Assembly: GCF_032062105.1 (NCBI RefSeq) | Contig: NW_026933408.1 | Span: 372,001 to 436,000 of the forward strand | DNA from: Saccostrea cucullata | Lineage: Eukaryota | DNA: 64,000 bases | Direction of reading: 5' to 3' | Program-made: the position numbers and the translations under genes | Notes under the pieces: generated by a model | Told to the model about the DNA's origin: nothing | Databases searched by the model: none | Seen by the model: the letters and a program-made list of their open reading frames with translations, nothing else | Shown: positions 8,382-62,100 of the stretch, piece by piece | Position numbering within the stretch: position 1 is the first letter of the stretch | Layout of the letters: each line of letters begins with the position of its first letter

Positions 8382-11300
8382 TCACGGTATTCTTGCATCC
8401 CCTGTATTAACTATTAAAAAGAAAATAAACAAATAATTAAAATACAGATAATATGTGTCTATCTTTGACAGAGTAAAAAGAAACCACAAGGAAATTTAAC
8501 ATAAAGTACTGGATACATACCACCCATGCAAGTAGAAGTTAATGCGTCAAAGCAAAACTCATTCTCAAAGCACGTTAGCTGAAACAGAAAATAAAAATGA
8601 GAAAGAAATCACTCATAATGAGAGAGAAAGAGAGAGAGATAGAAATAGAGATACCTGTCCACAGTTATCCCCTCTTCCTGCTGTATTTTGTGGAACCTCT
8701 GGTCTTTGATTAAGTCCAACGTTTGACCCTTAACATGTATAAAAACAATCATTAGATACAAAACTAAATCAGTCTACAACAACTATACAGCTATATAAAC
8801 AGGGTACTCACCAGGTCCAAGTGGCGCCCCGACACAGTTATTACCCTGACAAACCTCTGCAATGTCAGGAATACGGATTATATCCGGCCCGGGCCCCCCA
8901 GGTCCTTGTGGAATGGGTTGTTGAGGAATCACCGGCTGTGCGGGTCTGTTCTGTGTAGGAGGGACCCCACCCCCGGGTTGTAAATCACTAAGTGGTGGAA
9001 GACTCATCCCTGTGCCAGATGCTGATGTACCACTCAAAGCGGAAGTTCCAAACAAACCACGTGATGGAGTTTGCGGTACCGCTGCTGGTATATTATCAGT
9101 CATTGGAAACAGCTCTGTGTTTGGAATAGGGTTAAGATCAATAGGCCCAGAGGAACCTGGGATTGGTGAGAGGTCAGAGGAGGAACCAGGCGTTATTATG
9201 ATCGGTGGGTGTCTCGCCCACGGCACCCTGGAACCAGAAGAATCTCTGACGGTCCATCTGGAGTTAGGGTCAATATTTGTATTTGTTCGACTGTTTGGAA
9301 TCAAAGATGAAAAAGGTCCAGTCTGTGAATTCCTATTGATGGGCGATATTGGTCTGTTATTTGGAACAACAGGTATCATTGACGAAGCCTCTGAATTTGG
9401 ACCAAGAGGAGATAATGGACCCGTCTGCGAGAAAGGCATATTTGGTAGCGACTGTACAGGATTAACTGGGCGAACATCGTTCGGATTTACGGCACCTGTG
9501 TAACAAAAGAGACATCATCCAGTTGTATGGAATATATGGAGATAACGAACAGTATTCAAAATCAAAGTCCCTTAAACAATACAAAATTGGAGCAGAGCAA
9601 ACACGGACCTACAAAACATCAGAAGTGGGATCAGGTGCCAAGGAGGAGCGAGCATCCATGCTGATCGGTCACACACGCCGTGTGCTCCTTGTCATGATCG
9701 GGAAATAACGGAAAAACCGTCGAATATTCAGTGTGTATATTATGGTCTAACTATCAGTATGAAAAACACCAGTCGGCATTTGACTAAATGATGAATTGTG
9801 TACTGACAAGGTCATTGTATCGACCATAGATCTTACGAAATGATGACTATAGATGATTTATTATTAATATAATCATCATGAACGAGGGTATATGGTTGTG
9901 AGGTACGTGCTGTAGACGGCAATAGAAAGGTAGCCTGTTAGTGAAATGTCCTTCGAGATTTTTGAACTCGAATTGAGACGCCACCACATGCCGCTTGATG
10001 GCTGCAATTTAATTTAGACCTGTGCCACAGGCTTTTAGTAAGGGAACTTTACCATCGTCCCCTACTGTGACGTGGGACTTCGTTTTGTAAAGATTCATTC
10101 GAAGGACCGGTTTCCACGTCCTATAGTGGGATTCTAACTCGCAGAGTCAGAATCAGCCCGATCCTTATTCCGCGACTCAATCTAGAGCAAATGTTCAAGC
10201 CACTGCATGCGCTACCCGGGCGACATAGTTACGCGTTGCGATTGTTTTCCCTCTGCAAAATTGACGACGATATGTGCAGTACAATTTTGTATGCCTATAC
10301 ATGTTGGTTGTCATTGAAATTTATTTAACGAACCATCCTATGTAAATACTTAAGTTTATTTGGGACTTAAACTTTTTGTAAACTTCAGGCACAAGCATTT
10401 AAAATTACCCTTTAGACTAAAATTATGAATATATGTTGTTAATGATTTCTGGAGTTTTATTTCGAAAAAGCCTTTGAATTAAAAAAAAAATGATAAAAGT
10501 TAGAATTTATGCACTCCAGTTGATTTGATAAGATGCCTTTGGAGTCTCCCAGTTGATTCTTAAGGATACCGACAGTCCCCTTGTAAGTCAACATTTTGCA
10601 AATTCTATGATAAAAACAACGACCATTCTTTACACACTGAATCGTGTAAGGAGTTTTCTTATCGGTCTTTATGACAATGAGCAGACGATTATTGGACCAG
10701 AAGACATGGGGTTCTTACTCCTCCATGGCACTTGATCCTAACTCTGGTGTTTCTATTGGTCCTTGTTTGTTCTCTTCTCAGTTCCAGCATGACATTATAA
10801 CAAATCGAAAGATTTGTTATAAGATATCTTACCAACAGTTAGGGCTATTCCAGTACAATGACCATCTATACATCGGGAGTTTGGCGGACACGGTCTCTGT
10901 TACAGGAATAAAACGGACAGATCAAATACAAAGACCAATGACGAAACATGTGAGTTGATTTATTATTTTGTACATGTGTGTCGATTTTCTTGCTGAAAAC
11001 CTCTAAGTATATGTTGTATTTGAAATTATGAGATATTCAATTATCTAAACTTATTGCATAGATTTTTTTAAACAAATAAAATTTTATTCTAGCTAATTTT
11101 AATCTCCGAAAGATCAAAAATAAAAATTGTTCAGAAATATTCCAACTTTATTATTGTATGGACTTGAATGAAGGAAATATAACAACAGCAAGTTTTTTCC
11201 CTTTTTGTGCGATAGGAAAACTAAGTAAATTCACTTACATCACAGGTTGGATGTGGCCTAGCTACAAGATGAAAAATAAAAATTCAGAGTCAAGTGAAAA

Positions 11301-14300
11301 CCAGGTATAGAACAGATTACTTCTCAGCAATAGCAAATATATGATTTTTTAAAAATCATTTATTTAATTCATACAAAGAGGGGCTTAAGGAACTAAGACT
11401 ATGACCATGAGGGTATTAGAAGACCTACCGTTGAGAACATCGCAGTGACAATCCCCAGGACTGTCACAGTGGCACACGTAGCCGGGGGGACACGAGGGCT
11501 GTCAAAGAAACAAAATTAAAACTTCAGTAATGGCATCTGACCAATTGCCAAGTTAACAAAAAGTCACGTTAAATTAGTCATATTTTTGTCTATTTCAAAT
11601 AAGGAAATTTATTTGCAATCTTCAGTTAGTGCAACTTTAAAGTTAGAATTATATTTCTAAAAAGTATTATGATACATACACTACACTGAGAATTCCCGAC
11701 TGAAAGGAAAGAAATGACATCAAGTCAGTGTTATTGACAATGCTGCAATTCTTACTTATATTTTTGTCATATATAACCTGTAATTCAATATGAAATATTA
11801 ATATCAAATGTAAGCAGTTTAAGTTAAGGGAGTTCTGGTATAACAAGAGAGAAGGAGAAGAGATATCTAAGAACCATGACAAATCTTGAGAAAATTGTTG
11901 AAACCATGGATAAAAAAACAATTATTTAATAGAATATTGATATAACAGAAAATTGTAGACAAACATTTTCAGACCCACCCCCTCCCCCCAATATCACAAG
12001 AGACACTATTGAAAGTACAATATCATAGAGACTTTCAAGAAAGAAAATGCATCTTGCAGAGCTAGCATATTTGTCTTTTTTAGGAAAGGAAGATAACAGT
12101 AACATTTGGTAAAGATTTGAAATATGCTAGCATAAGACCTTTGGATAATGGAATGACCTGACAGCCCTTTGGAATGGAATATTCGTTAGTTATATATAAT
12201 GTAGGCAGTGGAATTCGCGTACGTATCAATTTTACCGAAATTTTCAGTCAGTAAATTTAAAACAATACGTATTACGAATATTTTTAATTTACGAAAAAAT
12301 TCGGTAAAATTGATGGGTACGCGAACTCCTGTGATATAAGGAAACTTTTAGAAACAGCGAAGTTAACAGCTGTGATAGAAGTTAACAGGTAAGACAGCTA
12401 TTTAGCATTTGTGTAATTTTATAAAACAAACCAGTATAATTGAATACAAACCTCTTTGGCATATTCCTTTGTTGCAAACTTCTCCGTTCCTGCATCTAGG
12501 CTTAACAGAAAATGGCTTCGATAATATTAGTAGCTGAGTAAGTTCAAAATACTTAAGTCATACAAGGTTCAAAAGCACACGGTTTACTGTTTATTTTATG
12601 GCACAATGATTTGACCTTGGTCTTGCTAATGTATTGTTTTATTTACGCCTAGTCGGCAATTTTTCAGCCATATTTCGGCGGTCTTGGAAATGGTGATAAC
12701 GAACAGTATTTAAGCTCCGATTTCCAATCAAACAGTACAAATATGAGCAGAGATAACAATGATAGCTCTTAAGATGGGATCAAATGACATGAAAGAGTAA
12801 GCATCCCCTTCGACTGGTCACAGCCGCCATGTGCTCCTTGACATGATCGGGAAAACTGGAGAAAATTGTAAACAATTCAGTGTGTAAATAATGGCTTAAC
12901 AATTAGTATGATAAATGTCAGTCAAAATTTGACTTAATGATAAATTGTAGTTGCTGACAAGGTCATGTATCGACCATAGAAACGATGACTTTAAACGAGA
13001 CTTCTGATATTGTTGTTTCGTTAGATAGCCAGCTTGAGAATGGCCTACCCCGTTTTAGAAAGTTTGTAGGTTGTGCATGGTCTTGTGTATCGAAACAAGA
13101 ATAGGAAGAGACATAGACCCAAAAGCCTCAGGTATATTGCTATATAGATAAGGGAAGTTAACGAATGAAAAGTTGAAGTCATCAAGTTTATTATATGGCG
13201 TTGCTGTTAGGTTATTTCAATCTTTAATTTCAAGCTCATTGGCTAGATCGATTCGACATATGACTTTTTTTCTTCTTATTTTTAAGATTTTGAATAAGTT
13301 CAACTTCAAATGAATACAAAAATACTAGTAGGTCCAATGATAATGATACCTGTAGGAATTCAGAAAGATTGTTAGATTATGATATTGAGTCAAGATTTTG
13401 CAAACCTAGGTAGTAAAATACTCGTTTTACTTTCCTACAATAAAGTGTTGTCAATCTTTTACATTACTCAGACGCTGACAGACAGACAGCTACAAATACG
13501 GCTATAGACAGAACAGCACTTATTGAGGCTTCATGAATTAAAAATTGCTTATTAAAATGTCCCAATTCCATCAGAGTTTTATGAAGTAAAATTGATTTCG
13601 ATAAACACAATTTGAAATAGATTAAATAAGAATGGAAAACCTTCACATATTATAACAAAATAAAGTAATTAAAAAATTATTTTCGTGCACTAGTATTTTT
13701 CCTAATGTGACTTCTGTCTGATCACTACTGATGAATTCTCTTTGAAAAAAATAAGTTTAATACACTATGTAAACCTTTATAATGAACCTACGGCGTATGT
13801 GACCAGTCGAAAGCTTACTACTCCATGGCACCTGATCCCACCTTTGGTGTTTTCAGAGGTTCGTGCACATTATAATTTCAGTGTGGTCCGTCAACAGATT
13901 TTGAATAATTAAAAAAAGATTTTACTGATGTCAGTTTCACTTTTACCATTAACACAGCTTATTTTTTTAAACATCTGAATCAATGCTTACCTCACATGGC
14001 TCTGCAATATAAAATCAATGGACATCATTATAAAATGATAAGACAAAGTTTTTCTTAAAATAACAATCACATACTGGCGGTTCCATGTATTATACGTATA
14101 CTATTATTTTAACAGAAATCTTGTTTCTACATTATCAAGCTTTTGCAAGTTTGTACCTCTCAATGTATAAATCAAAGAACCTTTATGGGGCATGTATTCT
14201 TTCACCCTTAACAACAACGTTTGCACGAAATCTTGACAGAAAACGTTTTAAAAAATATATGTATAGATAATTGGCTGTGAATAACAAATATCAATCGAAC

Positions 14301-17300
14301 ACACCAACATTTAGATTATTGATTTAAAGTTAAAATCATGTCAACATTTTGAACATGAGACAAACATTTGTTTGAAATCACTTACTGTCTTCACATTTTC
14401 CATTTATGCATCGTTGATCATTTCCACAAGCAGGCTAGATTAAAAATAGAATCTTAATTAAAAAATACCCCAATTGACATTAGATATTTTAGGAATGTGA
14501 CATTGTTAAAGATATAAAAGTAACATACCCTGCAGGGCTCTGTAAGGAAAAAGGAAAAAAAGTTTAAATATGAAATATTCAAAGTTATTCAATTTGGTTA
14601 ATTATTAGTCAGAAAGAAAAAAAGGAAAAAAAGTTTAAATATGAAATATTCAATGTAATTGTTATTTATCATAATAGTCATTCGAAAGAAAATATCATCA
14701 TTCAATCTTTGAAATTTCTTAGGAAAAAATGTAAGAATTAGTTAAAAATAAATTTTCAAAAATGAACACATGACAGTGTAGAACTTATCAAAATGACAGT
14801 GTAGAACTTACCAAAATGACAGTGTAGAACTTACCAAAATGACAGTGGCCATGGTGACAAGTCTGACTTTCTTTACAGATTGGCTAAAAATAAAAGATGA
14901 CAGAAACATATCATTAATAAGGATTAACGGATCTACATACCTCAGGTAGGAACAATAGCTCTTAATTGTTATTAAGTTGTAGAAGTCTCAACTTCATATC
15001 AACATCTTATTATGCAAGAATTTTCATTTTGCTGAATATTAAGTGATGGGCCTAATCCAATGTCTGTTGTACGTGTCTTTGGGTCCGTGTAAGTTCGTTA
15101 TCTTTAACTTTTACACGTGTATCACATAAGATGAAAATGCTAATACATATGACACCTGATCCCACCTCCGATGTTTGGAGGTCCGTGTTTGCGCTGCTCC
15201 TATTTTGTATTGTTTTATGGAATTTTGATTTTGAATACTGTTCGTTATCTCCATGTGTTTCATTTCAATTGAAAGTGATTTGTGATACATACTTAGCGAT
15301 GACATACTTGTATGCTTATTCCGAAGCGCATCACATGATAAATGAAGATAATAGATGAAATGGAAAAGCACATCTCCAGCTGCACGGTCATATACCCGCT
15401 CCTTGACATGATCGGAAAATAAACGGGGAAATTCGTCGACAATTCAATGCATAATTAATAATCTAACAATTTATATGATTGACGATATCTATGTTGTTTT
15501 GGGTTGCCAGGTCTTCCATTAATCTATTGGAATTCCCATGGGTACCAATTATGCCCCATTATTAGCAGACCAATTTTTATATTTATATGAAGCAGAATTT
15601 TTGCAAAATCGTATGCATAAAAAGAGGAAAACACTTGCTGTGGCCTTCAACTCGACATTTAGATATATCGACGACGTATTGTCAATTAACAATGGTTATT
15701 TCAATTCTTATGTCAATACGATATATCCTGGTGAGCTTGAGATAAAAGATACCACAAAGTCTGATATATCTGTTTCATATTTGAATATTTTACTTGAAAA
15801 AGACGTTAACAGTTATCAAACAACCAAGCTCTGTGATAAACGTGATGACTTTCAGTTTTCTATCGTCAATTTCCCTTACTTATGCAGCAATATACCATCA
15901 TCACCTGCATACGGAGTTTAGATATCTCAGTGGATTAGATACGCAAGAGCATGCTCTACATATGAAGAATTTCTACATCGAGGTAAATTATTGACAAACA
16001 AGTTGATGAAACAAGAATATCAGCAGGCTCGTTTAAAGCCATTGTTTCGTAAGTTCTATGATCGATACAATGACTTTGTCAGCAAATACAATTTATAATT
16101 GAGTCAAATGCTGACTGACGTTTTTCATACTAATTGTTCGTCCATTATCTATATATATAGTGTATATACACTAAGTTGACGACGGATTTTTCCGTTATTT
16201 CCCGATCATGACAAGTAACAAATGGCGGGTGTGACCTGTCAGCAGGGGATGCTGACTCCTCCATGGCACCTGATCCCACCTCTAATGTTTTGAGGTCCGT
16301 GTTTGCTCTGCTCCTATTTTTGTATTGTTTTATGGACTTTTGGTCTTGAGTGCCGTTCGTTACCTCCATATATTTCATAAAAAACTTCAGTCAGCATTAT
16401 TTTGACTTTATGATAGATTGTGTTTGCTAACAAGGTCATTGTATCGACCAAAAAAGTTACAAAATGATAACTAGAAATGAGACTGCTGATATTCTTGTTT
16501 CATCAACTTGTTCGTCATAAACATTTCTCGTTTTAGAAATTCTTGATAAGTAGAGCATGCTCTTGCGTATTGAATAAACTGGGAGATATAAACCCTTTAT
16601 GCAGGTGGTGAAGATATATTGCTGCATAAGTAGGTGATATTGACAATTGAAAAGTAAAAGTCATCATGTTTTTCATAAAGCTTTTTGGTTAGATTACCAT
16701 TAACGTTTGCTTCTAGTTAAATATCCAAATATGAAACAAACGTATCAGACTCTGTGAGATCTTTTATTTCAAGCTACTTGTATGTATCGTGTTGACATAA
16801 GAATGGAAATAACCATTGATAATTAAGAATATATATATTTAGATGCCGTGTTAAAAAAGCCGTCGATATATTTGTATATCTGAACGTCTCAGAAAGTTTT
16901 TTCTCAATTCTTCTAATAAAGGAGCTTTAACGCAAAGAGTTATGCTTAGGACGAAAAGATCATCTATCAAATGTAGATTTAAGGTATGTTTGTATTTTGA
17001 GAAAAATGATGACATTGGTACCGTGGGATAGACTGTAGAGGCACAATATATTTCAACTGCATTAACGAAATAAGTTACTATATCTAGAAACTGGAACCCT
17101 TTATTTTCTGACAGAGTACTTACCTAGACTTAAAACCACGGATCTGTGTTTTTAATCCCATTTCATATAACTTCAGAAACATGGATGTCTCTTTCTTACA
17201 TAGCAGGTACTTACATTACAAAGGGAGGCCCCCACTACAAAAGTGAAAGAGAGACATTAATGAGAGAGAAAAGATATATAATGCTTTTATATTGAATTGC

Positions 17301-20300
17301 TATTATCTTTTGCAGAATAATTTATTGAATTCCTTACTTCTTTGACATCCACCGCCATAACACACGTATCCCTCGTCACAACCACCCTAAAACATAGAAC
17401 ATCATACATATATAACCACCCTAAAACATAGCACATCATACATATATAACCACCCTAAAACATAGAACACCATTCACTTATAACCACCCTAAAACATAGC
17501 ACATCATTCACTTATAACCACCCTAAAACATAGAACATCATACATATATAACCACCCTAAAACATAGCATATCATTCACTTATAACCACCCTAAAACATA
17601 GAACATCATAGACTTATAACCACCCTAAAACATAGAACATCATACATATATAATCACCCTAAAACATAGAACATCATACACTTATAACCACCCTAAAACA
17701 TAGAACATCATACATATATAACCACCCTAAAGCCTAGCACATCATACACTTATAACCACCCTAAAACATAGAACATCATACACTTATAACCACCCTAAAA
17801 CATAGAACATCATACATATATAACCACCCTTAAACATAGAACATCATTCACTTATAACCACCCTAAAACATAGAACATCATACATATATAACCACCCTTA
17901 AACATAGAACATCATTCACTTATAACCACCCTAAAACATAGAACATCATACACTTATAACCACCCTAAAACATAGAATATATATACACTTATAACCACCC
18001 TAAAACATAGAACATCATACATATATAACCACCCTAAAACATAGAACATCATTCACTTATAACCACCATAAAACATAGCACATCATACACTTATAACCAC
18101 CCTAAAACATAGAACATAATACACTTATAACCACCCTAAAACATAGAACATCATACATGTATAACCACCCTAAAACATAGCACATCATACATATATAACC
18201 ACCCTAAAACATAGAACATCATACACATATAACCACCATAAAACATAGCACATCATACATATATAACCACCCTAAAACATAGAACACCATTCACTTATAA
18301 CCACCCTAAAACATAGCACATCATTCACTTATAACCACCCTAAAACATAGAACATCATACATATATAACCACCCTAAAACATAGCACATCATTCACCTAT
18401 AACCACCCTAAACATAGAACATCATACACTTATAACCACCCTAAAACATAGAACATCATACGCTTATAACCACCCTAAAACATAGAACATCATACATATA
18501 TAACCACCCTAAAACATAGAACATCACTTATAACCACCCTAAAACATAGAACATCATACACTTATAACCACCCTAAAACATAGAACATCATACATATATA
18601 ACCACCCTTAAACATAGAACATCATTCACTTATAACCACCCTAAAACATAGAACATCATACATATATAACCACCCTTAAACATAGAACATTATTCACTTA
18701 TAACCACCCTAAAACATAGAACATCATACACTTATAACCACCCTAAAACATAGAACATCATACACTTATAACCACCCTAAAACACAGAACATCATACATA
18801 TATAACCACCCTAAAACATAGAACATCATTCACTTATAACCACCATAAAACATAGCACATCATACACTTATAACCACCCTAAAACATAGAACATAATACA
18901 CTTATAACCACCCTAAAACATTTATAACATCATACATGTATAACCACCCTAAAACATAGCACATCATACTATATATACCACCCTAAAACATAGAACATCA
19001 TACACATATAACCACCATAAAACATAGCACATCATACATATATAACCACCCTAAAACATAGAACACCATTCACTTATAACCACCCTAAAACATAGCACAT
19101 CATTCACTTATAAACACCCTAAAACATAGAACATCATACATATATAACCACCCTTAAACATAGAACATCATTCACTTATAACCACCCTAAAACATAGAAC
19201 ATCATACATATATAACCACCCTTAAACATAGAACATTATTCACTTATAACCACCCTAAAACATAGAACATCATACACTTATAACCACCCTAAAACATAGA
19301 ACATCATACACTTATAACCACCCTAAAACACAGAACATCATACATATATAACCACCCTAAAACATAGAACATCATTCACTTATAACCACCATAAAACATA
19401 GCACATCATACACTTATAACCACCCTAAAACATAGAACATAATACACTTATAACCACCCTAAAACATAGAACATCATACATGTATAACCACCCTAAAACA
19501 TAGCACATCATACATATATAACCACCCTAAAACATAGAACATCATACACATATAACCACCATAAAACATAGCACATCATACATATATAACCACCCTAAAA
19601 CATAGAACACCATTCACTTATAACCACCCTAAAACATAGCTTATAAACACCCTAAAACATAGAACATCATTCATATATAACCACCCTAAAACATAGCACA
19701 TCATTCACCTATAACCACCCTAAAACATAGAACATCATACACTTATAACCACCCTAAAACATAGAACATCATACACTTATAACCACCCTAAAACATAGAA
19801 CATCATACATATATAACCACCCTAAAACATAGAACATCATTCACTTATAACCACCCTAAAACATAGAACATCATACACTTATAACCACCCTAAAACATAG
19901 AACATCATACATATATAACCACCATAAAACATAGCACATCATACACTTATAACCACCATAAAACATAGGACATCATACATATATAACCACCATAAAACAT
20001 AGCACATAATACATATATAACCACCCTAAAACATAGAACATTGTAGATATATAACTACCCTAAAACATAGAACATCATACATATATACACACACCCTGAA
20101 ACATAGAACATCATACACTTATAACCACCCTAAAACACAGAACATCATACATTTATAACCACCCTAGAACGTAGAACATCATACATATATAATCACCCTA
20201 AAACGTAGCACATAATACATATATAACCACCCTAAAACATAGAACATCGTACATATATAAGTACCCTAAAACATAGAACATCATACATATATATACACAC

Positions 20301-22154
20301 CCTAAAACATAGAACATCATACACTTATCACTTGCTTGGAATATTCTTTGCTCATGCTTCTCTGAGGTATCATTGACATTTGCTTGTGTAATTTTCCTGA
20401 CACATTACATCTTGACTCTTATTAACTGAAGACAAGTCTTTTAACTTGGTGACCTTCAACAAGAAATTGTTCTTTAATATATGTCTGACATTTACTTCTG
20501 AACAATACTGAGGATTAATGCTTCTTATTTTAATCAAGTATAAAATATTCATCACATAGTCTATTCATGTCAAAATAATGACAGTTAAAAGGTTCTTATA
20601 AATGATGATAAGTGTTTGATGTTTTCAAAATAAGTTTCTTATCAGAAAAATATTTCAAGTTTAAAATCTATTATTTGCAATTACAATTTTGTCTATCAAA
20701 TGTAAGGTTTAATTTTTTAATTTAAGTTAAATTTAACCATATGAGCATCCACTCAATCAAGTAATTACACAATGCTTGAATTTCTATCTGTATTCTAAAA
20801 CAAATGAACAATTCCATCATACCGGACACGGCGATGGTGGAGAAGGTGGCCCCCGATTGAAGGGAGAATGGGGTTGTGTCCTCCTTGACATTGATTGGGA
20901 TGGCCCCCGAGGTAGGGGAGAATGGGATTGTGTCCTTGACATTGACGGGGGTGGTCCTGGAACTCTTGGTACTATCCTCACACGAAATGGGTTATGAAAA
21001 ATCCGGGTCATTACATCTTAAAAAAATCAGAAAAATGGTGCTTGTTATAAAGCAAAATCATGTTTACAGCTCAACGCACTTTTTAAGCTCACATGTTTTT
21101 TCGCACAAATTAAGGGCAAATTTTTGCAATAAATATTACTAATGCGAACTTCAGTACGATGACATAGCCCTAAGTTTTATTACATATATAATGTTAGGTA
21201 TAAATGTCCTTTAAAATTGATATCTAAAGTTTCCAAAGTGGATGTTTTAGAGGGGAATTTATCAATAAATGGTATGGTGTTTCTACTATGGGATTCTACC
21301 ATAGTTACAAATTATGTAAAACGAGCTTCCTTTGATACAATGCAGTTGGAAATTTAAAATTTTCTTCTTAAAGGTGAGTATTAAAAAAAAAAATTCTTTG
21401 CTCATTAACCATACTCCTCTTGGTTTTGTCGAAATGTAGCAAAAGGGATAACATTACAGAAAGAAACCATACTAAAGGGTAGGGTAATAAAATATTGTTA
21501 ATTTTTGAATAGTAAATTCTAGGAAAAGGAAAATTAATCTGGATTTACGGTTGGCTGTGGAATGGATCTTTCATGATTCTAGATTTTAGAAGGTGACACT
21601 CTGAAAAAAGCCACGTTATAAACATACAAAGCAGTCAAACAGATGAAAAATACTATTATCACCCTGCGTTAAAGAGTCAGAATGTACAGAAATAAGAAAT
21701 TACAGTAGCTGAACTGTGCCCGTGTCTACCTTTCTGCAAAGAGCTACTGCTTTCAAAAGAACGGATAAAAAGACAGCTGCAATTGGAAAGAAACCACAAA
21801 AAATCAATGGAAATAGTTATTTTTCAGGAAAGAATATATTAAAGTTCCACCAATTGATTTGTGTGAATTATGTTTTAGTAAATGAAATAAATCTCAAATA
21901 ATGTAAACAAATACTTTTGAAATGTATATTGTCTCAGTACACAATTTTACATTATAACGTTGTGACTTTTATTTGTGCGAAAAAAACGTGAGCTTAAAAA
22001 GTGCGTTGAGCTGTATTTATATTGAAAAATCTTGATTTGTTTTGTGAAAGACTCATGAAAATCTATTTGTTTTTTTTTCCAGCTTACCAGCTACCGATCG
22101 TTGAGCAGAGCAAATATGGAACAGGTAAAAAAGTATGCATATTGGTAAGTACAT
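8382..22154 (-). CDS. Gene A: uncharacterised secreted Cys-module / Pro-rich protein, about 506 aa, 17 coding exons including microexons
   Basis: Exons 22088-22154 (signal peptide MYLPICILFYLFHICSA), 20823-21016, 17338-17386, 17215-17234, 14835-14883, 14529-14539, 14386-14434, 13991-14001, 12452-12500, 11680-11699, 11429-11498, 11239-11261, 10833-10896, 8812-9495, 8655-8728, 8521-8578, 8382-8410. All GT-AG with matching phases, 1521 nt open to TGA. Modules read CPGGCDEGYVCYGGGC, CNPICKESQTCHHGHC, CRPACGNDQRCINGKC, CEPRCRNGEVCNKGIC, CSPSCPPGYVCHCDSPGDCHC, CDRPCPPNSRCIDGHC. Minus-strand AATAAA at 8263-8268. Confidence 0.88.
9520..9850 (-). mobile_element. Penelope-like retroelement 3' fragment
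   Basis: Matches the 3' tail (GTGGGATCAGGTGCCAAGGAGGAG...) and end of the RT thumb region seen in the longer copies at 15476-16378 and 37417-38590. Confidence 0.75.
9975..10225 (-). mobile_element. Degenerate tRNA-derived SINE-like element
   Basis: Minus-strand head with A-box-like GGTAGCGC..AGTGG and B-box-like GTTAGAATCC; body loosely similar to 61105-61240. Heavily diverged. Confidence 0.4.
12206..12333. mobile_element. Short foldback MITE-like inverted repeat
   Basis: GGAATTCGCGTACGTATCAATTTTACCGAA at the left pairs with TTCGGTAAAATTGATGGGTACGCGAACTCC at the right. Confidence 0.65.
12685..13260 (-). mobile_element. Penelope-like retroelement fragment (RT C-terminal region and tail), degenerate
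   Basis: Same tail and thumb sequence as the other copies (GATGGGATCAAATG..., GACAAGGTCATGTATCGACCATAGAA, AAAAGTTGAAGTCATC). Confidence 0.7.
14770..14847 (-). repeat. 23-bp tandem repeat (3+ copies) of the gene A exon end plus donor site
   Basis: (ATGACAGTGTAGAACTTACCAAA)x3; on the minus strand each unit is CACTGTCATTTTG|GTAAGTTCTA, copying the end of exon 14835-14883. Confidence 0.85.
15150..16880. mobile_element. Composite of Penelope-like RT fragments in alternating orientation (pseudogenic)
   Basis: Plus-strand RT at 15476-16378: GIPMGTNYAPLLAD..LY..E, FRYIDDVLSINN, KRDDFQFSIVNFPYLCSNIPSSPAYGV then thumb and tail, with stops. Flanked by inverted pieces at about 15375-15475 and 16380-16880 and a solo tail at 15150-15260. 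Confidence 0.88.
17380..20326. repeat. 34-bp minisatellite, about 87 copies, in a gene A intron; each unit contains the exon's 3' splice site
   Basis: Unit TAACCACCCTAAAACATAGAACATCATACA(T/C)(A/T)TA with period 34 (17381, 17415...). The minus strand reads GTTCTATGTTTTAG|GGTGGTT, the same as the acceptor of exon 17338-17386. Confidence 0.95.
21067..22013. mobile_element. Tc1/mariner-type MITE
   Basis: TIRs CAGCTCAACGCACTTTTTAAGCTCAC..TTTTTTCGCACAAAT and ATTTGTGCGAAAAAAACGTGAGCTTAAAAAGTGCGTTGAGCTG, with TA on both flanks; no transposase ORF. Confidence 0.85.
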
Positions 22155-28787: not shown

Positions 28788-31700
28788 TCAAGGATTAACA
28801 TTTACCCTCTGTCCTGTAACTGGGTCCTGAAACAAGACCGAGCTAAGATCTATTCCTAGCTGACTGTCAGGCACGTTAGACTGTCTAAACTCACTAGCAA
28901 TTCTGGCGTGAATATCTCCAAATCCAGAATTTTGTTGGGTCCCAAATCGTCCAGCTTGAGTTTGCTGTGGAACTCTCGTAAAACCCCCGCCTTGTGGCTG
29001 TTGAGGACCTGCACCAAACGCACCCGGGGTAGATTCTCTGAACCCAGTAAAGAAATCTGTCACCTGTCTCCCGGGGGCGCCTCCTACCTGTCCCCCACTG
29101 TGGTGGTGGTTGTGGGTACCCTGGCCTTCATGGTGGTGGTCATCGTGTCCCGTGTGTGTGTCTGGGATTGGGATTAATTGTCCAGTGGCCCCTGGTCGTG
29201 ATTGATCATGTGTGTGGTCGATGTTAGGGTTTGTAAGGTGTGTCAGAGTATGGGCATCTAACAAAACAAGATTAATAGTTGTAGATGCATAAAGGACTTG
29301 GTTAACTTTATATCCATAACAATTTATTTCCTTGATTAAATTCTGTGTTCTTACCGATTTCACAATGACCATTATGACAAACTTCGGGGGAGACACATGG
29401 GACCTGAAAAATGTACAAGAGTATAATTGATGTGGCCGCAAATAAATTAAGAAATTTATACATCTTTTGTTTTATAGAAATTCAAAAAGATCATTTTTGA
29501 AATGAAACTATAACTCGTTTCAATGTTCTTCGATTAAGAAAGTACTATGCATGTACTAGTATTTGTCTTTAAAAAAGAAGAAAATCAGTTTACTTACAGG
29601 ACAGGTGTTTTGTTTTGTCCCTTCTGAAAATAGAGAAAGCATGATATTTTATGCTAATAAAATTATTTTAAGTTAAGTTTCATGTATTATATGTTATTTT
29701 GTATTTCCCCACTTTGTGCCTCTTTATCTGTAAACCCGTGGGGACCCCCCGGTAACTTTATCCTTTTGAGATAAGAGAACTAGCATCATTATATCTACTG
29801 CTATTGTAAAGACAAGACGGCCAAACATTTGCTGAAATATTTTTTGGATTACTCGAGATTAAAACTTCCTGTGAGAGGTAATATTAATTGACGATTTATT
29901 TCGTATTCTTCTGTGGACATCTTCCTGTGTTGTTGTCGGTGTGGTGAAAACGAAAGTAGATACTCCAATGGCTCCCATTCGCGTAGCGATTATAGGACAT
30001 TCCTTTATTCGGCGGTTGCAGAATTTTATTGCTCATAACACTGAGAATGACAATTTGATACTTTATAGGCATTTATTTGATGTACAGTTTCTTAGTGAAG
30101 GAGGTTTGACTGTCGATCGCATGGTTCACGGACCCAAATTTACGTCATTTGATCCGCCTCCCCAGATCGTTTTTCTACAGATTGGAGGAAATGACCTAGA
30201 TAATACCCATCTAGATGTAGACGCCTTGGTGAGAAAAATCCAGAGTTATGTAAATTACTTGGTTCTGGGATGTGGAGTGCGGCATGTCGTTATCGGCCAA
30301 ATTCTGCGGCGCAACAGGAGGGGTGATTACAACTCCCGGGTCGTCGAGGCTAATTGCTGTCTACAGAACTGGGCCTCCTCTCTAGACAATATCTCGTTTC
30401 ATCATCACCATGGTTTCTGGAAGGACTTATCATTCCTAAGTACAGATGGCGTACACATCAGGTGTTCCCGCACCGACAGCAGCCAGATGAGAAAGTACCT
30501 GCAAAGCGTGAAGAGGGCCGTCTTGCGAGCTTCTCGCACCATTTGGTAATCATGTTCTATTTATACGCATGTGGCAATTAATGTATTGCTTCATGCAAAT
30601 CCATCCCATATAGCAGTAGATAACTATTATATCATTACCGCATTATATCTTACTTGAATTACATGTGGTAATTATTGTATTGCTTCGTGCAAATCCATTC
30701 CATATATAGCAGTAGATAACCATGATGTCATTATATCTTACTTCAATATGCTATATAAACTCAAATTTTCTCTTAGATTTCCATAATTTTAACATTTTTG
30801 GGTCTCGTGCAACAAGTCTTAACTAAATTAATAGGTTTACCAATGGACCAATTATTTGTTACTTACATAGATTAAGATCAATATTAGAATTTCAACTGGG
30901 TAATGTTACCATTTCTTATTCATTTATTAAATACCTGCAGTCTGAATTGATATTTGTTTCTAGGCACAAAGTGTACAGTCTGCTTGGTTAGAGTACCACT
31001 CTTCATAGCATTAGTTCATTGGTAAAACATGCTTTGTTTCTTTAGTTTAGAATTTGTGGTGTCAAAGCTCATAGCTTATTAGTTGGTTTCATTGCTGTTC
31101 CCATTGCATTAGTTGTATGAGATTGGACATCTTTCTATATGTATAAAGGTAGCACTAGATTTTGCTTGGATGACCATTTGTTATTCATACAGTGCTGCCA
31201 TACATTTTAATTATTTATTTATTTATCATGTTTATCACTGGTACCATTTGCACTTGTTTGTATGACCATTTGTCATTCATGGAGTGATGCCACATTTTTT
31301 GTACCAAGTACCATTTGTACTTGGTTTGAATGGCCATTTGTCATTCATTGCTGCTAGCAGGTTTGAACTTGTATAATTTTGACCATTTGTCAAAGTGCAT
31401 TGTACATGTTCTGGTACCATTTGTACCATTGTTTGTTATCATGTGCCATTTGTACATGATGGGATGACCATTTGTCATCTTTTTTCTGCTAGCAGTATTT
31501 CTTTGTGTTGAACTCTGACCACGTGTCAGTTTTCTATTGGCATCACTCACTTGTGCTTGGTATTTTTTGTAAAACATGTATTTCAGTTTGAAATTGAGGG
31601 CTAGAGACACCTACTTTCAATCATATATGACAATATAAGGCTATAGTATGGTCTTCATTTGCAATTAATATAGTCATATAATTTTGTATATACAGAACTT

Positions 31701-34700
31701 TACATTGGTACTGTTAGTTTAACTTAATTTAGAACAAAACTTTTTTATTATATGCCTCAATTTCAGCAATGCCACTCAAGAAAAGGCAAGAGCCTGGTAA
31801 ACTATATAAACTCAAAGTTTCTCTTGGGTTGCTATAACTTTAACAGTTTAGGTCTTGTGCAACTAGTCTGACCTACATTAATAGGTTTACCAATAGATCT
31901 ATTATTTGTTTACTTACATAGATTAAGGTCAATATTAGAATTCTTTTTAAAAACAAGTTTATCATGGGTTGCGACTATCAGTATGTATTTAATTACTAAT
32001 TGTCATTCAAATATAGATATATAGGTTAATGGATACATCTGCCATTTTCAACTGGGTAAATGTTACCATTTCTTATTCATTTATTAAATACCTGCAGTTT
32101 GAATTGATATTTGTTTCTAGGCACAAAGTGTACAGTCTGCTTGGTTAGAGTACCACTCGTCATAGCATTAGTTCATTGGTAAAACATGCACTGTTTCTTT
32201 AATTTGGAATTTGTGGTGTCGTAGCTCATAGCGTATTAGTTGGTTTCAATGCTGTTCCCATTACCTTAGTTATACGAGACTGGACATCTTACTATATATA
32301 TATATATATAGCTAGCACTAGGTTTTGTTTGGATGACCATTTGTTATTCATACAGTGCTGCCATACATTTTAATTATTTATTTATTCATTTATCATGTTT
32401 ATCACTGGTACCATTTGCACTTGTTTGTATGACCATTTGTCATTCATCGAGTGATGCCACATTTTTGTACCATGTACCATTTGTACTTGGTTTGAATGGC
32501 CATTTGTCATTCATTGCTGCTAGCAGGTTTGAACTTGTATAAATTTGACCATTTGTCAAAATGCATTGTACATGTTCTGGTACCATTTGTACCATTGTTT
32601 GTTATCATGTGCCATTTGTACATGATGGGATGACCATTTGTCATCTTTTTTCTGCTAGCAGTATTTCTTTGTGTTGAACTCTGACCACGTGTCAGTTTTC
32701 TATTGGCATCACTCACTTGTGCTTGGTATTTTTTGTAAAACATGTATTTCAGTTTGAAATTGAGGGCTAGAGACACCTACTCTTCAATTATATATGACAA
32801 TATAAGACTATAGTTTGGTCTTCATTTGAAATTACATGTAACATATAATTTTGTATATAGAGAACCTCACATTGGTACCGTTAGTTCAATTTTATTTAGA
32901 ACAAGAACTTTTTATTATATGCCTCCATTTCAGCAATGCCACCCAAGAAAAGGCAAGAGCCAGGGCCTAATGGACAGACTCGTAAAAGACAGCGGAGACA
33001 AAGGTCATCTAGTGACGAATCGTTGCCACAAATCGATTACAATAAACTAGCGGAAGCTATCCTAAAGAAGCAGGGCCGGGTGACCGAGACAGACAATGGG
33101 GAAAGTCCAGTATCTCTTGAGCCCAGTAAAGATGTGGAAACGCCACTACAAGCGCCTTCGGTGAATTGTTTGCCTGACACAGCCAATACAGCAGTGAATA
33201 CAAATAATGTTTTAGGTGCAGCCCAACAATCAAGTTTCCTCCTAACTTTGGATAAAATTTTTGGGGGTGAGTCTATTGTAAGTAGTTCAGTGGATGATAA
33301 CAATGTCACACCACTGCAGTTATCAGGGGGTATACCATTAGGGGCAACTATTCCCTTGCGTGTAAAGCAAAAAATTTGGGCTAATCAGTATATTGACTTA
33401 AGGGTGTTATTGCCTGAACACAAACAAGAAACTGTGTCTGTACAAATTGAAGAAGGATCAATCAAATTGAATGCCAAACAGTCAGAGAAAACCCCATTAT
33501 CCATTTATCAATGGACAAATGCCTTTATAACTTTCATGTCAATTTATATTGAGTCAAATTCACAGTCAGCCTCAAATTTGCTTAAGTACATGTCAACAGT
33601 CCGTCACCTCCATGCATCCAATGGTGAGTCAGCCTGGAGGTTATATGATGAGCAGTTTAGGAAGTTGCGTGAGGTGTCAGACCTGCCTTGGCAACAACCC
33701 CTTAATGAGTTAATCATAAGAGTAACAACAATGTCAAAATCACATAATCAAACATTCCCACGCAACATATCATCAAACAATCGGTCTTTTCGGGGACCAA
33801 TAAGGTTTTGCTACACTTACAACAATAGACAGCAATGTACATCAACAAATTGCCCATACAGACACATATGCTCGGTGTGCAAAGAGACACATCCCCGAAT
33901 TCGGTGTACAAAGCAAAAATCAGACACTCAAAATGCAACCAATTCTCAATCTCAACGTCAATCAGGAAAATCTAAACCTACCAACCCCAGTACAAGCACA
34001 TCATCTTGAGCATTACCTACAAGGTTATGACCCCTTTCTTTCTCATTACTTAGTTCAAGGTTATTCAGCCAAAAATACAGTTCAACAATAGCATCTCATT
34101 GCTTAGTTTTGTACACAAATTCAGGAAAGTAGTGATCTCTGTCAGTCATTTCTTTTTTAAAAATTGCTCAAAGGTGTCCATCACGCATCTGGTACTTCTG
34201 CAGATTTACGCCTGCCTATTACATAGTCAATTTTATTAAAAAATTATAATGCTTTGGATAAGACAGTTCCACGATATGATTTAAGACAACTATTGAAAAC
34301 ATTATTATTACTTGCTTTCCTTGCCTGCTTGCGTTTAGGGGAGTTGATAGTAAAATCTAAGGTTTCTTACAATATTGTGGTTCAGCGTTCTGATTTTCAT
34401 TTTGATGAATCCCGGTCAGATGTCTTTAGACTCAAAAATCTTAGAACTGAACAGACTAGCTCGCCTATAACCATCCAACTAACAGCATTAACTATGCCTC
34501 CTTTTTGTACAGTAGCAAACCTCAAGCCTTATTTAGTACAGTTTCTAAACCAACAGGTTCCCCCTTTTCAGTTTAAATCATCCATGCCAGTGATCTATCA
34601 GTTCGTCACTTCTCACTTAAACACTGCCACATCCTTCATTGGTTTAAATCTAAACTCTATAAGGGTCATAGTTTCTGTATTGGGTCTGCCACAGAAATGG

Positions 34701-37700
34701 CACAAAGGGGGGTTCCTGAGCACACAATTAAAAAGTTAGGTAGGTGGGGGTCCGATGCCTTTAGGCATTACATCCGTATTCAATCATTTCCCCTACAGTA
34801 AATTTTCCTACCCTTTGAGTTGCTCAGCAAAGGTCAGTGGCCAGCAAAATTGTTGCACTGCCCATATTTTTGTGCTTTTTGGACATTAACTTGGTGGCCA
34901 GCATTTTGTTGCACCAGTACTGCTATGCGTATTTTCAGTAATTGACTAATGGTCAGCTTTTTTGGTTGCATTAGTCAAGAAATCCATGGTTAACATATCA
35001 TTACTTGAAGCATGTTGCCCCACTGCCCATATTGGGGGGGCGGGGTGCATTAACTTGGTGGCCAGCATTTTGTTGCACCAAAAATTACATAGCGATTCTT
35101 TCCGCATTCGACTAATAGTCAGCAATTGAGTTGTATTAGTCATGTAATGAATAGTTAAAATACGGTTGCATTGAATTTCATTGTGAAGAATGCATTGTTT
35201 TGACTGTGTTGGACAATCATGTGAATACCAAGATGTACACTTAATTTGCAATTTGGAAATTTTTGGGATTCCTTTTTAGTGTTTATTTGCTTAGGATTGT
35301 TGATAACAATTTTACTTTTAATTGCTCCTCTTAAAAATTTCCCCATTGGGCTGCACCTAGGTTACTCATTTGAATCTTATATACATTGCCAGTATCATGC
35401 TATTGACAATATGTTTTATATTGAATCTAAATTAGTTATTTTGAATAAAACAATGATAATGCATTTTCTGACTATATTTCGGGTGGCGCAAGGAAAGGCT
35501 TGTAGCCTTTCCTTTTTTGGCCATATTTTGGAGGCCACCTATTTTGCCAAATTATATATGTTATGTAATAGTCACATACTGGGAGACTAATTGTTATTGC
35601 ATAATTGTGTTTATAATTTTTCTCAGGAATTGTGTTTTAAGGTTACATTGTCTCCCAGTCTTTTTTATTCAGTTTTATGTATTATGTTATATGTTGTCAT
35701 TTCATAATAAATGACATATTTTTGGAACAAACATGTCTTGCGTTATTTGGCAAAAAACAAGCTCAATGTTGTCAGACTGGTGTTTAATTGAAGGAATGAA
35801 AGCTAAACTTAAATGATATTTTATGCTAATAAAATTATTTTAAGTTAAGTTTCATGTATTATATGTTATTTTGTATTTCCCCACTTTGTGCCTCTTTATC
35901 TGTAAACCCGTGGGGACCCCCCGGTAACTTTATCCTTTTGAGATAAGAGAACTAGCATCATTATATCTACTGCTATTGTAAAGACAAGACGGCCAAACAT
36001 TTGCTGAAATATTTTTTGGATTACCCACCTCCATCCCCAAACAGACTTTAATTGTACACTAGGCCACCTCAAGCTCATATGTCTATGTTTTCATTGTAAA
36101 TAATTCTTTTTATATGTCTATTATATTGTTAGTCACATACTATGTAGGCCAAATAATGGAGTTTTGAGCCAATTCATATGTATAAGGCCATATTTTGGAG
36201 GCCACCTATTTTGCCAAATTATATATGTTATGTAATAGTCACATACTGGGAGACTAATTGTTATTGCATAATTGTGTTTATAATTTTTCTCAGGAATTGT
36301 GTTTTAAGGTTACATTGTCTCCCAGTCTTTTTTATTCAGTTTTATGTATTATGTTATATGTTGTCATTTCATAATAAATGACATATTTTTGGAACAAACA
36401 TGTCTTGCGTTATTTGGCAAAAAACAAGCTCAATGTTGTCAGACTGGTGTTTAATTGAAGGAATGAAAGCTAAACTTAAAATTTGTTATTATTTTGATTT
36501 GAAATAACTCAAATCGGTTCACAAGAAACAGAAATAAGATAGGAAAAAAGCAGTTGTTCAAATTTGGTTTGGTATTGTATTCTCCCTATTACGCAAATGT
36601 TCAAGTACAAATTGTGTGATTTTTCTCCCATGGAAATCAACATGTAAAGGTTTATATAATTCCATACAGGGATTGCAAAGTTATGATCCAGACACACAGA
36701 AAGACAGCTAACTAAACCTGCTTGTTTGTCCTTCCATTTATGGAGTTGGGATCAAGAAATATTTATTTCTGATGGGTAAGGAAAGAAACAAATTAAAAAA
36801 CACAAAACAAATAGATACCTAAGTCACAGTGTCCATCGTGGCAGTAATACCCCGGAGGACAGGGCTCCTGTAAAAACAAAATATTGTATATATTATTAGG
36901 GAAATTCGAGTAATTAAAAAGAGAACCTGAATATTTATTGTTTTACATCATGTACGTTTAATATGTAAAAAAAAAAACTCACTACACAAGGTTTTTCCAC
37001 TTTTGGAGTAGGCACTAAAACAAAGAGGATTGATATTAGTTTTATTTCGTTATCTCAAATTCCATTTCCCCGATACATTAAAATTTATTTGTTTTTCGAT
37101 CAATAAGTGTTTTGTAACAAGGTTTTGACAAAGTTGTGAGGTAATCAATTAAGTTGTGAGGTAATCAATTAAAATCAAAGAAAAGTGATATGAAGTTCAA
37201 CTGACATGAATTATTTATTCATAAAAAAGTAACTAACAAAAGTACAAAAAATGTATTCAAAGATAAAATTGTTGTCAAACAGGAAATCGATAAAATTCAA
37301 AATATTTGTTGCATTCGAAGAAAAAACCAGAGATATTCACATGATAAATATATAATGTATAATTAAAGTTTGCAAGAGTCATTAGTCCATATATTATGAA
37401 TAGAAGGCAGAATAGAGATGAAACATATGGAGAAAACGAACCGTGTTCCAGGTCTTAAGTCCATAAAACAATACAAAATAGGAGCAGAGCAAACACGGAC
37501 CTCCAAAACATCAGAGGTGAGATCAGGTGCCATCGAGGAGTGAGCATCCCCTGCGGACCGGTCATACTCGCCATGTGCTCCTTGTCATGATCGAGAATTA
37601 ACGGAAAAATCGGTTTTCAATTCAGTGTAGTGTAAATAATGGACTAACAATTAGTATGAAAAACGTTAATCAGCATTTGACTCAATAATAATTTGCATTT

Positions 37701-59160: not shown

Positions 59161-62100
59161 AAGGTAAATACCTGTATTTATGTATGCTTTTGAAAAATTG
59201 CTTGCTGACTTAGTATAACGATTTTTTTTTAAATTAAATGATATTGAAGAAAACACAAAGCAGATGTTGAAGATCTGAAAAAGAAGCACAATGAAGAAAA
59301 CGAGAAACACAAAGAAACTATAACAGAGTAATATCAATATGAATATATTTTTCCTGTTGAATAAGTACTGTGAAATATATCTGTAAGCAAAGAGAGTAAT
59401 TCATTTTAAAAACTTTTTGTTGTCATCCGGTCACCATATGAGCAAGTAAAATCTGGAATCAGATTCAATTTATTTCATGCTATCACTCATTATTCACTAT
59501 AACCCATAAGAAAAAAATTGAAATTCATATTTGTTTAATGAAACGTTTGAATAATGATACCGAGCAATTTTTGACAGAAAAACAAAAGAACTTGAAAAAG
59601 TAACCCGACAGCTCAAGGATGAAACAGGGTAACATTTTAAAAACTTTTTTAACAAAAGTCTCTATCATAAATTCATTAGAATGTTGATATCAATAAAATG
59701 TTTCTTATTAAAAGAATGTGTAACTATCACTGAAATCGTTGTTGATAAAAAGAAGTACTAATTTTATAAAAGAAAATGATATTCTAATAAAAAAAAAATG
59801 CATCAATAAAAATTGTAATTAAATTAATGATTATTCGTACAAATGAAATTTGAAATTTCAAACGAATGGAAAATATCTCTATTACCATGGCATTTACTCC
59901 TTACCTTCATTATATTTTTCTTAATCGGAACTTCATGTTTGTCAAGTAATACAAAATCTTTTAGAATAAAATCTTGGGTTAATATGGACTCACGAAAAAA
60001 ATTGTAAAATAAGAAAAAGATTTTTAAAATTATAAAGGAAAATATATTTTTTATAATTAACGTTATTGGGATTTACTAGTAGCATTTTGATTTAAAAATG
60101 GGGGATCTTATAAATATCAATTTAACCTCTTCTAAATAAAAGTGGAAGCTTTAGATTTTCTCTTTCGATGTTAGATATTTGTGTTATATCTATTTCTATA
60201 GCATCTATGTTTTACATTCATGTTTAATCTTTAATTATTTGGGATTAATTTTGCACAATAAGGAAAAACGCCTTAATGAGATTATTTTAGAAGATTCTCG
60301 TCAATGACAATACTTTTATTGTTCCTTTAAAACAGATACGGGTTTGATCCTTTTGTCATATAGCACGATTTACAAAATAAAAAAAAAAAAAACCAAAACC
60401 CACATATTATGAATTCCTGAAGATTTATCTGTTAACCTGGAGTACGAAACACACAAAAGTATAACTTGTATACTTTGTCTTTGCAGGAAAAACAAAGATA
60501 AAGAAGCAGTGCGGGAAAATGAAAATGTGAAAAGAATTAAAGAACTAGAAAACATTATAGAAGAATTGAAAACGTAGGCAAAATGTCAATTTTTTTTAAA
60601 ATTAAATTTTATCTTAAATACAAATTTTGAAATATTTTGATATGAAGAGCGTATTTTGCTGCATCAGTTTACATGAGTCACAATTGCCAGTCCACGTTTT
60701 TTGTGTACTTTCCATGCTTTCTAATGAATGAAGATGCATTTATTATACATTAATATTCTACTAGGATAAACATTTAAAGTGGGAAATTTGATTGTATGCT
60801 ACATGATATGTACTTTTCAAAGTATTCATACGGAACCGTTTTACAAAACAAATAGATAAATGTTGATTCATAATCAAAGTGGCTTTTAATAGCAATCATA
60901 TTTATTTCATTTAAAGGGAAAATAAAATACTTCAAGAAGATTTCGAAAAAAGAAAGTCCAAAAAGTAAGTATTGTTTATAGTTCCACCCATATAAATCGA
61001 ATTTGTAGAGGGCTAAATTGACTTTGCCTGCTACCCAATCCCGTTCACTTTCATTGGTGAATAAAATTTTGTATAAATAAAAAAAATGTAGCAAATTATA
61101 CATTACACCATGTATGCCGATGGAGGCCTAAAAATGAAGATCTGTACTCGGCACTTTAAGTACTGTTTGACCAGTGAAGGAACTTTTTCGTGGCAGAACC
61201 TACTACAGTACGAGACCTGTTTCTCATTTGAAGGACCGATTTCATGTAGAAGTTTTTGAATAAATTTTTGCTTCATATGAGTATGCAAATAGATCTGCAC
61301 ATAACGAGTTTTAATCAGTGTCCATGTGAATTCTGATATATTTCCCTTGATTACTCTCTACCTTTGAATAAATCTCTCTTTCCATTGCAGTCAACCGAAA
61401 CTAACAAAGACATCAGATGACATATTAGCTTTGAAAGAAGAGAATGATTCTCTCAAAAACAGGTAGACATAACATTGCCATAACACGATAACAGGGATTT
61501 TTTTATGTTGTAAACATTGCTCCATTATAACCACAGAGGATCTTTTTGTTGATTGTATCAATGTTTCAAGAAGATTACATTCTATATTGTTCTTAACTAT
61601 TTTCCTTTCTTCGTAAAGACTCAGTCAGCTGGCGGGTGCCAAACTAACGGAAGGAAATCCTAATATTGCGGATCTCAGCGACAAGAACAGGCCTATCAAT
61701 TTGGCAGAAAAATTCTCAGAACTTTATGACAATGAATGGACAGATGCATTAGAAGAGATAATGGATAATGAAAAGAAAAGTGAAGAGGAAGGAATTAATG
61801 TTTTGTTTCATATAGTCAAGGTAAAACTCGTACTTTCCTTTTTGTGCATTGAGAAACATTCATCCCTTAATTGTTCTTCTCTCCTTCTCCATCTTTCTTA
61901 ATCTCTAAAACAAGTCAAACAATTTTTCTTCTGTCTTGTATGTAACTGTGGCTGTTTATATTTGTAATTTTTGTGATTGAAGAATATAAAAAAACTCTTT
62001 TGCATTTATGTTTTATTATCCATGCATTCAGCTTTCTGTTTGTGTCTGTGTATGTGAGCTTAGATGGAAAAAAGGAAAAAAAAATCCGATTTATTCTTAT

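Follow-up and report, generated by a model that had tools for sequence, protein, structure and literature searches.

Two tandem oyster genes with arrays of a two-exon cysteine module and few frame-preserving splice choices

An alternating two-exon module in two paralogs

Analysis of a window of the Saccostrea cucullata genome (contig NW_026933408.1; the window is the whole stretch of 64,000 nucleotides (nt), and positions are counted from its first letter) revealed two tandem paralogous genes, gene A (8382-22154) and gene B (28788-43577), both on the minus strand, with arrays of a small cysteine-rich module encoded by pairs of exons. The evidence indicated that these likely secreted paralogs probably owe their exon layout to an old tandem duplication of one two-exon unit and are now spliced mostly constitutively, with few frame-preserving choices. 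The architecture is real, and its use of the splice potential is limited and partly lineage-specific. Gene A was LOC134238245 (RefSeq P0043), with its array at 10833-17386, and gene B was LOC134238230. Both contained a predicted signal peptide, called by visual judgement together with a predicted N-terminal helix, a Pro-rich stretch, seven cysteine modules, and an extended region of low complexity. Among the sequences searched, close relatives were confined to oysters. No paper on these genes was found in the literature searched, subscription journals and supplementary tables lying outside the search.

The array of gene A, read from 17386 down to 10833, consisted of 11 exons of 49, 20, 49, 11, 49, 11, 49, 20, 70, 23, and 64 nt with AG/GT at the exon ends. 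Their phases alternated between 0-to-1 and 1-to-0. The 0-to-1 exons (49-70 nt) carried the second to fourth cysteines of a module (Cys2-4), and the 1-to-0 exons (11-23 nt) carried the first (Cys1), located two or three codons before the end of each exon; the usual spacing was C-x3-C-x5-C-x4-C. The first coding exon (22088-22154, 0-to-1) encoded the predicted signal peptide, with an N-terminus identical to that of P0043, and was followed by a Pro-rich 1-to-0 exon (20823-21016) ending with Cys1 of module 1, which was completed by the 49-nt 0-to-1 exon 17338-17386. Modules 2 to 6 each consisted of a Cys1 microexon and a Cys2-4 exon: 17215-17234 (20 nt) and 14835-14883 (49 nt) for module 2, 14529-14539 (11 nt) and 14386-14434 (49 nt) for module 3, 13991-14001 (11 nt) and 12452-12500 (49 nt, with a weak AAG acceptor and a GTTTGT donor) for module 4, 11680-11699 (20 nt) and 11429-11498 (70 nt, five cysteines) for module 5, and 11239-11261 (23 nt) and 10833-10896 (64 nt) for module 6. 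Beyond the array lay a Pro/Ser/Gly-rich exon of 684 nt (8812-9495), which was frame-neutral (1-to-1), an exception that the original prediction had not mentioned. It was followed by an isolated terminal module on a 74-nt 1-to-0 exon with Cys1 (8655-8728) and a 58-nt 0-to-1 exon with Cys2-4 (8521-8578), and by the last coding exon with the stop codon (8382-8410).

In gene B, the first coding exon (43475-43577) encoded the predicted signal peptide and matched P0013, exon 2 (42952-43238, 1-to-0) ended with Cys1 of module 1 in the spliced model, and the last exon (28788-29257), which encoded a His/Gly/Gln-rich tail, was 100% identical to P0013. Modules 2-7 were encoded in the spliced model by twelve alternating exons within 29355-42115 (42093-42115, 41919-41967, 41795-41805, 41172-41223, 40905-40915, 39438-39486, 39167-39198, 39000-39051, 36983-37014, 36819-36867, 29598-29623, and 29355-29403). 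Two consecutive 0-to-1 exons of module 1, alternative a (42724-42772, 49 nt) and alternative b (42636-42681, 46 nt), broke the genomic alternation once. The original prediction had placed Cys1 at the end of a 1-to-0 exon and Cys2-4 on a 0-to-1 exon in both genes. The exon phases and the transcript joints of gene A bore this out, apart from the a/b tandem and from cysteine counts that had gone unmentioned: two in each of a and b, four in exon 39438-39486, and five in exon 11429-11498. Module 1 of gene B lacked Cys3 in both alternatives, and module 4 had one extra cysteine, in all array-spanning proteins; to judge from the sequences, the loss and the gain may reflect one bond between the two modules. 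The insertion with two extra cysteines in module 5 of gene A was present in both Saccostrea species, including Saccostrea echinata, and absent from the Crassostrea and Magallana proteins.

None of the array exons was divisible by three in length (0/11 in gene A, 0/13 in gene B). By computation, the skipping of any single exon shifted the frame (11/11 and 13/13), and the skipping of any adjacent pair kept it (10/10 and 12/12), as the original prediction had claimed for both genes. The frame thus permits only even-numbered skips, and 144 of the 2048 exon subsets of gene A and 377 of the 8192 of gene B were phase-compatible. The stop codon created by a single skip preceded the last junction by more than 50 nt in 11/11 cases in gene A and 10/13 in gene B; nonsense-mediated decay would be expected to remove such skips, as well as the forms of gene B that carry both or neither of a and b. 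A different use of the same arithmetic would be a regulated off-switch, in which skipping of a Cys1 microexon leads to decay and tunes expression rather than diversifying the protein. That every single skip of gene A predicts a decay substrate, and that 11-nt exons are kept in both paralogs, would agree with it. However, any exon whose length is not a multiple of three predicts likewise, and no skip product was seen among the contig joints listed; we consider this explanation very improbable.

The strict 0/1 alternation over 12 introns had a chance of about 1e-5 under independence, with assumed phase frequencies behind one of the two figures of the estimate, and the introns were not independent, as they stem from one ancestral unit. 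The isolated terminal module of gene A had Cys1 on a 1-to-0 exon, Cys2-4 on a 0-to-1 exon, and phase-1 introns at both sides, and each array started with Cys1 in a large exon and ended on a 0-to-1 exon, which argues for a repeating unit of class 1-1 that is divided by a phase-0 intron. Phase-1 introns flanked modules 2-6 and the terminal module in gene A and modules 2-7 in gene B, and module 1 shared its Cys1 exon with the linker. Modules 1-6 of the two paralogs aligned one-to-one across Saccostrea, Magallana, and Crassostrea. Compared with shuffled controls, the introns between module exons showed no excess similarity (best score 33 against a shuffled maximum of 35), while the nine 49-nt exons had 14-27 of their 49 nt in common; together with the one-to-one alignment, this indicated that the module copies are old. 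An ancestral two-exon class 1-1 unit would have been duplicated in tandem long ago, giving the arrays in both paralogs, and the inherited layout would now serve a few frame-gated splice choices. Tandem copies of such a unit alternate in phase automatically, so that no selection for splicing is needed. The system is suited to asking whether a phase architecture was selected for isoform diversity or inherited from duplication.

Splice choices in the window and in relatives

Alternatives a and b of gene B were the only alternative choice within the arrays that had both options in the window and confirmation from relatives. They corresponded to RefSeq isoforms X1 (a) and X2 (b) in S. cucullata and to X1/X2 in Magallana gigas, and assembled sequences carried one or the other. 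The two exons were identical at 26 of 46 nt and were separated by an intron of 42 nt, the remaining 31 introns of the two genes being at least 76 nt long. Inclusion of both or neither led to an early stop, and a reading of gene B with both exons was rejected because the frame was broken. Exactly one alternative was present in all 17 array-spanning gene B proteins (12 with a, 5 with b), in a collection where the forms with both or neither, stopping early, would not appear as full proteins. The alternatives are mutually exclusive, and this arrangement is common to Saccostrea and Magallana. The short intron likely also blocks the joining of a to b.

A second choice was found in the orthologs of gene A. 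Among the 31 array-spanning gene A proteins, 8 carried an extra segment of 28-29 residues, 22 had six modules, and 1 was a frameshifted model. These counts, like those for gene B, come from redundant, not independent, proteins, with 15 members listed per cluster for the clusters of 34, 19, 16, and 16. The carriers were 6 isoforms of Crassostrea virginica from two RefSeq loci and 2 members of the cluster P0002-P0008; among the members listed, the segment was present in 0/13 sequences of M. gigas or Magallana angulata and 0/2 of Saccostrea. At each of the two C. virginica loci, isoforms X1-X3 included the segment at the phase-0 junction of module 6 and isoforms X4-X5 skipped it. In the cluster P0002-P0008, which was closest to the Magallana sequences, 2/7 proteins had 29 extra residues, placed precisely where the phase-0 junction of module 6 lies. 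With exon edges taken from the junctions in the window, the optional segment appears to be one 0-to-1 exon plus one 1-to-0 exon, out of register with the module. Since the pair is out of register, its inclusion re-partners Cys1, as had been proposed, and the prediction that pair skipping occurs and can make chimeric modules held for the C. virginica isoforms and the cluster P0002-P0008. A module split by an internal intron thereby gains a second, out-of-register splice unit, and one optional pair both changes the module number and re-partners the cysteines.

The corresponding site in the window is the phase-0 intron of gene A (10897-11238, 342 nt), a position at which the pair is optional in two Crassostrea-like lineages. 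No trace of the pair was found by scanning this intron (best scores 1-10, shuffled 95th percentile 11-15), and when the whole window was scanned for Cys2-4 exons flanked by splice sites, none came up beyond those listed. The array of gene A in the window was seen in no alternative form.

Transcript contigs were compared for gene A only, in 4 of 14 runs, and came from a relative (48 differences over 683 nt in the piece of run X3 on the large exon). In three of the four runs (X1, X3, and X5), one contig per run linked the 684-nt exon, through the array exons in sequence, to exon 14386-14434, and runs X1 and X3 extended the joints to exon 14835-14883, so that 9 of the 11 array exons were joined in order. 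The letters of both 11-nt microexons (14529-14539 and 13991-14001) were present between the joint ends in run X1. The exons from 14835-14883 to 8812-9495 were placed by model and contigs; the joints of the top two array exons (17338-17386 and 17215-17234) were not among the 15 joints listed, and these two, the Pro-rich exon, and the terminal-module and last coding exons were placed by the spliced model. No joint skipped an exon among the 15 listed. Run X9 lacked coverage of these exons, and the depth of contigs was not treated as a measure of expression.

The spliced model of gene A was the same as P0043 except for a 17-residue insertion in the latter. In P0043 and P0011, an in-frame acceptor 51 nt upstream of exon 12452-12500 added these residues within module 4 (12452-12551); the contigs of the relative and P0001 of S. 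echinata had the short form, and both acceptors were AAG. The insertion is either a real minor form or a model error.

The original prediction had seen in the alternating phases a frame-gated route to isoform diversity. This stood in so far as the family makes a few frame-preserving choices, and failed in breadth, as the forms on record were few against the 144 and 377 compatible subsets and the optional pair was absent from gene A of the window. In its strong form, the idea is that oysters actively use the phase alternation as a code for skipping pairs in broad combinations, which would yield a repertoire of chimeras and of module numbers, with decay as proof-reader. The number of compatible subsets, the out-of-register pair skipped in two lineages, the occurrence in C. 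virginica of this pair and another choice in all four combinations, and the M. gigas gene B model P0060, which lacks one whole module, all fit such a code. On the other side, the six core modules were intact in 30/31 array-spanning gene A proteins and the seven core modules in 16/17 of gene B (among the members listed), no exon skip occurred among the 15 joints listed, module identities were conserved position by position between the paralogs, and the scan of the window brought up no additional, hidden Cys2-4 exon. We judge broad combinatorial use unlikely, and equally unlikely its fuller version, a two-register code in which pairs would be skipped in either register by tissue or condition and decay would remove every odd-numbered skip. 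If true, asymmetric exons would here serve as a micro-exon system for diversity, generating a repertoire of secreted proteins that differ in the number of their His/Cys modules and include chimeric ones; what is visible of it would be the optional pair, its four-way combinations with the second choice in C. virginica, and P0060.

The opposite extreme is that the arrays are a pure relic of duplication, in which case what look like isoforms would be alleles or errors of annotation. Gene models are often wrong at the microexons (P0019, P0021, and P0030 are altered or frameshifted at 11-nt exons), the 17-residue insertion of P0043 was unseen in the contigs compared, and gene A of the window showed no alternative array form. 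However, in C. virginica a single RefSeq locus has isoforms of both kinds, those that contain the pair and those that lack it, so that one genomic sequence underlies them all. In the second lineage, one and the same upstream variant occurs with either form (P0007 versus P0005 and P0008). Both a and b are present in the window, conserved, and found in assembled sequences (P0068 and P0125 versus P0065, P0067, P0126, and P0128). This explanation therefore seemed slightly less probable still than the combinatorial code. A single constitutive isoform with an invariant module number, the outcome named as speaking for ancestral duplication alone, was not what we found, since forms that include and skip the pair exist; yet the core modules were kept in nearly all of the proteins.

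Several observations weigh against mostly constitutive splicing of an inherited array, which remained our preferred explanation. The evidence for constitutive use is biased, because the Logan contigs drop rare variants, 780 joints lay beyond those listed, and a relative was the source of the contigs. There is redundancy in the protein counts, which take in only the listed members of the larger clusters, and frameshifted or minor forms are under-represented in protein collections. With counts biased against rare forms, skipping may still take place at a low level. At one C. virginica locus, all four combinations of two binary choices were present, which is combinatorial splicing on a small scale; from the protein sequences, a Ser/Asn choice appeared to lie in the microexon before the pair, with and without the pair, and a one-residue variant resembled the use of a tandem acceptor. 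Finally, P0060 lacked exactly one in-register pair of gene B (module 3), although it belongs to a model set with visible microexon errors and is a putative isoform only.

Public oyster gene models (P0019, P0021, P0030, and P0017) broke or frameshifted at the 11-nt microexons, where oyster gene models often fail. In newer M. gigas and C. virginica records, the gene A ortholog was apparently split in two. The acceptor of microexon 42093-42115 in gene B was a tandem CAG-TAG, and P0060 reads as though the second had been used.

Comparison with known modules, exon systems, and folds

Mobile extracellular modules usually belong to class 1-1 (PMC8001218). The oyster module resembled such modules in being small, Cys-rich, predicted mainly-beta, phase-1-flanked, and tandem, with a predicted signal peptide. 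It differed from the usual class 1-1 module by its conserved internal phase-0 intron and by the location of Cys1 on a microexon of 11-32 nt; the internal intron creates a second symmetric unit (0-to-1 plus 1-to-0) out of register. Sequence searches found no shuffling of the oyster module into other animal proteins. Modules encoded by two exons also include fibronectin type III and some Ig domains.

In mammals, adjacent coordinated exons that keep the frame only as pairs have been reported (PMC13247083). The optional pair of the Crassostrea orthologs was similar to these pairs, as it keeps the frame while each exon alone shifts it. Unlike the mammalian pairs, it lies in a repeat array, straddles two modules, and re-partners Cys1 with Cys2-4 of another module. 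This likeness was found in the orthologs only (the C. virginica isoforms and the cluster P0002-P0008), and gene A of the window did not share it.

The micro-exon genes (MEGs) of schistosomes contain symmetric micro-exons, which account for the bulk of their coding sequence (PMC4350168). The oyster genes shared with them very short exons, a likely secreted protein, and alternative splicing among exons. The original prediction had called the oyster route analogous to, but different from, these symmetric-exon genes; in our reading, the arrays are no generator of diversity of the MEG kind. No oyster array exon was symmetric, and exons of up to 32 nt made up a small part of the protein: in gene A, the five array exons of 11-23 nt total 85 nt of a coding sequence of 1521 nt. 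In place of the large variant pool of MEGs, few and conserved oyster variants are on record, in collections that drop rare forms.

Mutually exclusive exons can be enforced by a short intron together with decay. Alternatives a and b of gene B agreed with this mechanism, being duplicated neighbours 42 nt apart whose joint use or joint omission brings an early stop. They differed from usual mutually exclusive exons in that each is a half-module with two of the three usual cysteines. The mechanisms themselves are already known, and the breadth hoped for in the original prediction was not seen.

No Pfam family matched any of the five oyster proteins searched. The next profile matches after the oyster genes were bacterial Cys-rich repeat proteins, and NF041328 (MXAN_6577-like Cys-rich) reached 12.9 and 19.9 bits in two of the five proteins, below its curated cut-off of 100, and did not match the other three. 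The module was similar to the myxobacterial Cys-rich repeats (NF041328, DUF7107) and to the N-terminal subdomains of the follistatin and antistasin families in its 3-5-4 cysteine spacing and predicted hairpin. All matches to those four-Cys hairpin repeats were weak and the likeness is one of resemblance only, the motif shared with the myxobacterial repeats being short and Cys-dominated. EGF-like, follistatin-N, and antistasin families gave no profile or structure match at a significant level. Sequence matches in the PDB (Nab2 zinc fingers with E 0.002, VLDLR, and a conotoxin) were rejected as matches of cysteine spacing from a profile dominated by bacterial repeats. The RefSeq names given to this oyster family (tenascin-X-like, formin-like, PEAR1-like) are without domain support.

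A structural model of three modules showed one β-hairpin per module between Cys3 and Cys4, with a predicted local distance difference test score (pLDDT) of 68-79 and a predicted template modelling score of 0.25. The full-length model of gene B, which likewise spoke for hairpins, was poor (mean pLDDT 38), and Foldseek found nothing for it at E<=0.001. The shorter, three-module model was that of P0030, a C. virginica gene model that is truncated and runs out of frame after about residue 120; for it, Foldseek gave no match at E<=0.001 and VIA-align none at Z>=2, tests that are limited by small models of low confidence. Weak Foldseek matches were bdellastasin (E 3.9) and hirustasin (E 9.1), and the atlas feature scores of 0.78-0.79 were weak, being below the threshold for a lead and under 0.9. 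Each module is predicted to fold as a short β-hairpin between Cys3 and Cys4, and the array would resemble a string of disulfide-tied beads. The pairing is presumably Cys1-Cys3 and Cys2-Cys4, which we assume by analogy to EGF and to the follistatin-N and antistasin N-terminal subdomains and do not offer as a result. Several hairpin tips were His-rich, as was the tail of gene B, which makes a secreted structural or metal-binding role the best guess. At about even odds, the most likely role would be that of an extracellular protein, structural or metal-binding, in mucus, cement, or the shell matrix, the length of which would be tuned by one module.

Neighbouring and intronic sequence

A neighbouring gene on the plus strand converged on gene A, with an exon encoding an SH3 domain at 2062-2232 (PF00018, E 1e-13). 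At the other end of the window, two open reading frames (ORFs) within 61617-63811 on the plus strand matched MIEAP (PF16026, E 3e-8 and 0.003).

The intron above module 1 of gene A was mostly filled by a 34-bp satellite of 87 copies (17380-20328). The satellite overlapped the acceptor of exon 17338-17386, so that an acceptor-like sequence of the pyrimidine-TAG type recurs, on the strand of the gene, in many of the repeat units. A gene B intron contained a 6.2-kb insert at 29641-36024 with identical direct repeats of 212 nt at both sides and ORFs of 224, 369, and 170 aa, which had no Pfam match at E<=0.01. The insert looks like a recent mobile-element insertion, and our impression is that it is presumably of the tyrosine-recombinase type. 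Similar decayed ORFs were located in introns of both genes (15523-15921, which had no Pfam match, and 37817-38230); they belonged to a dispersed repeat that matched thousands of contigs and that we take to be reverse-transcriptase-like.

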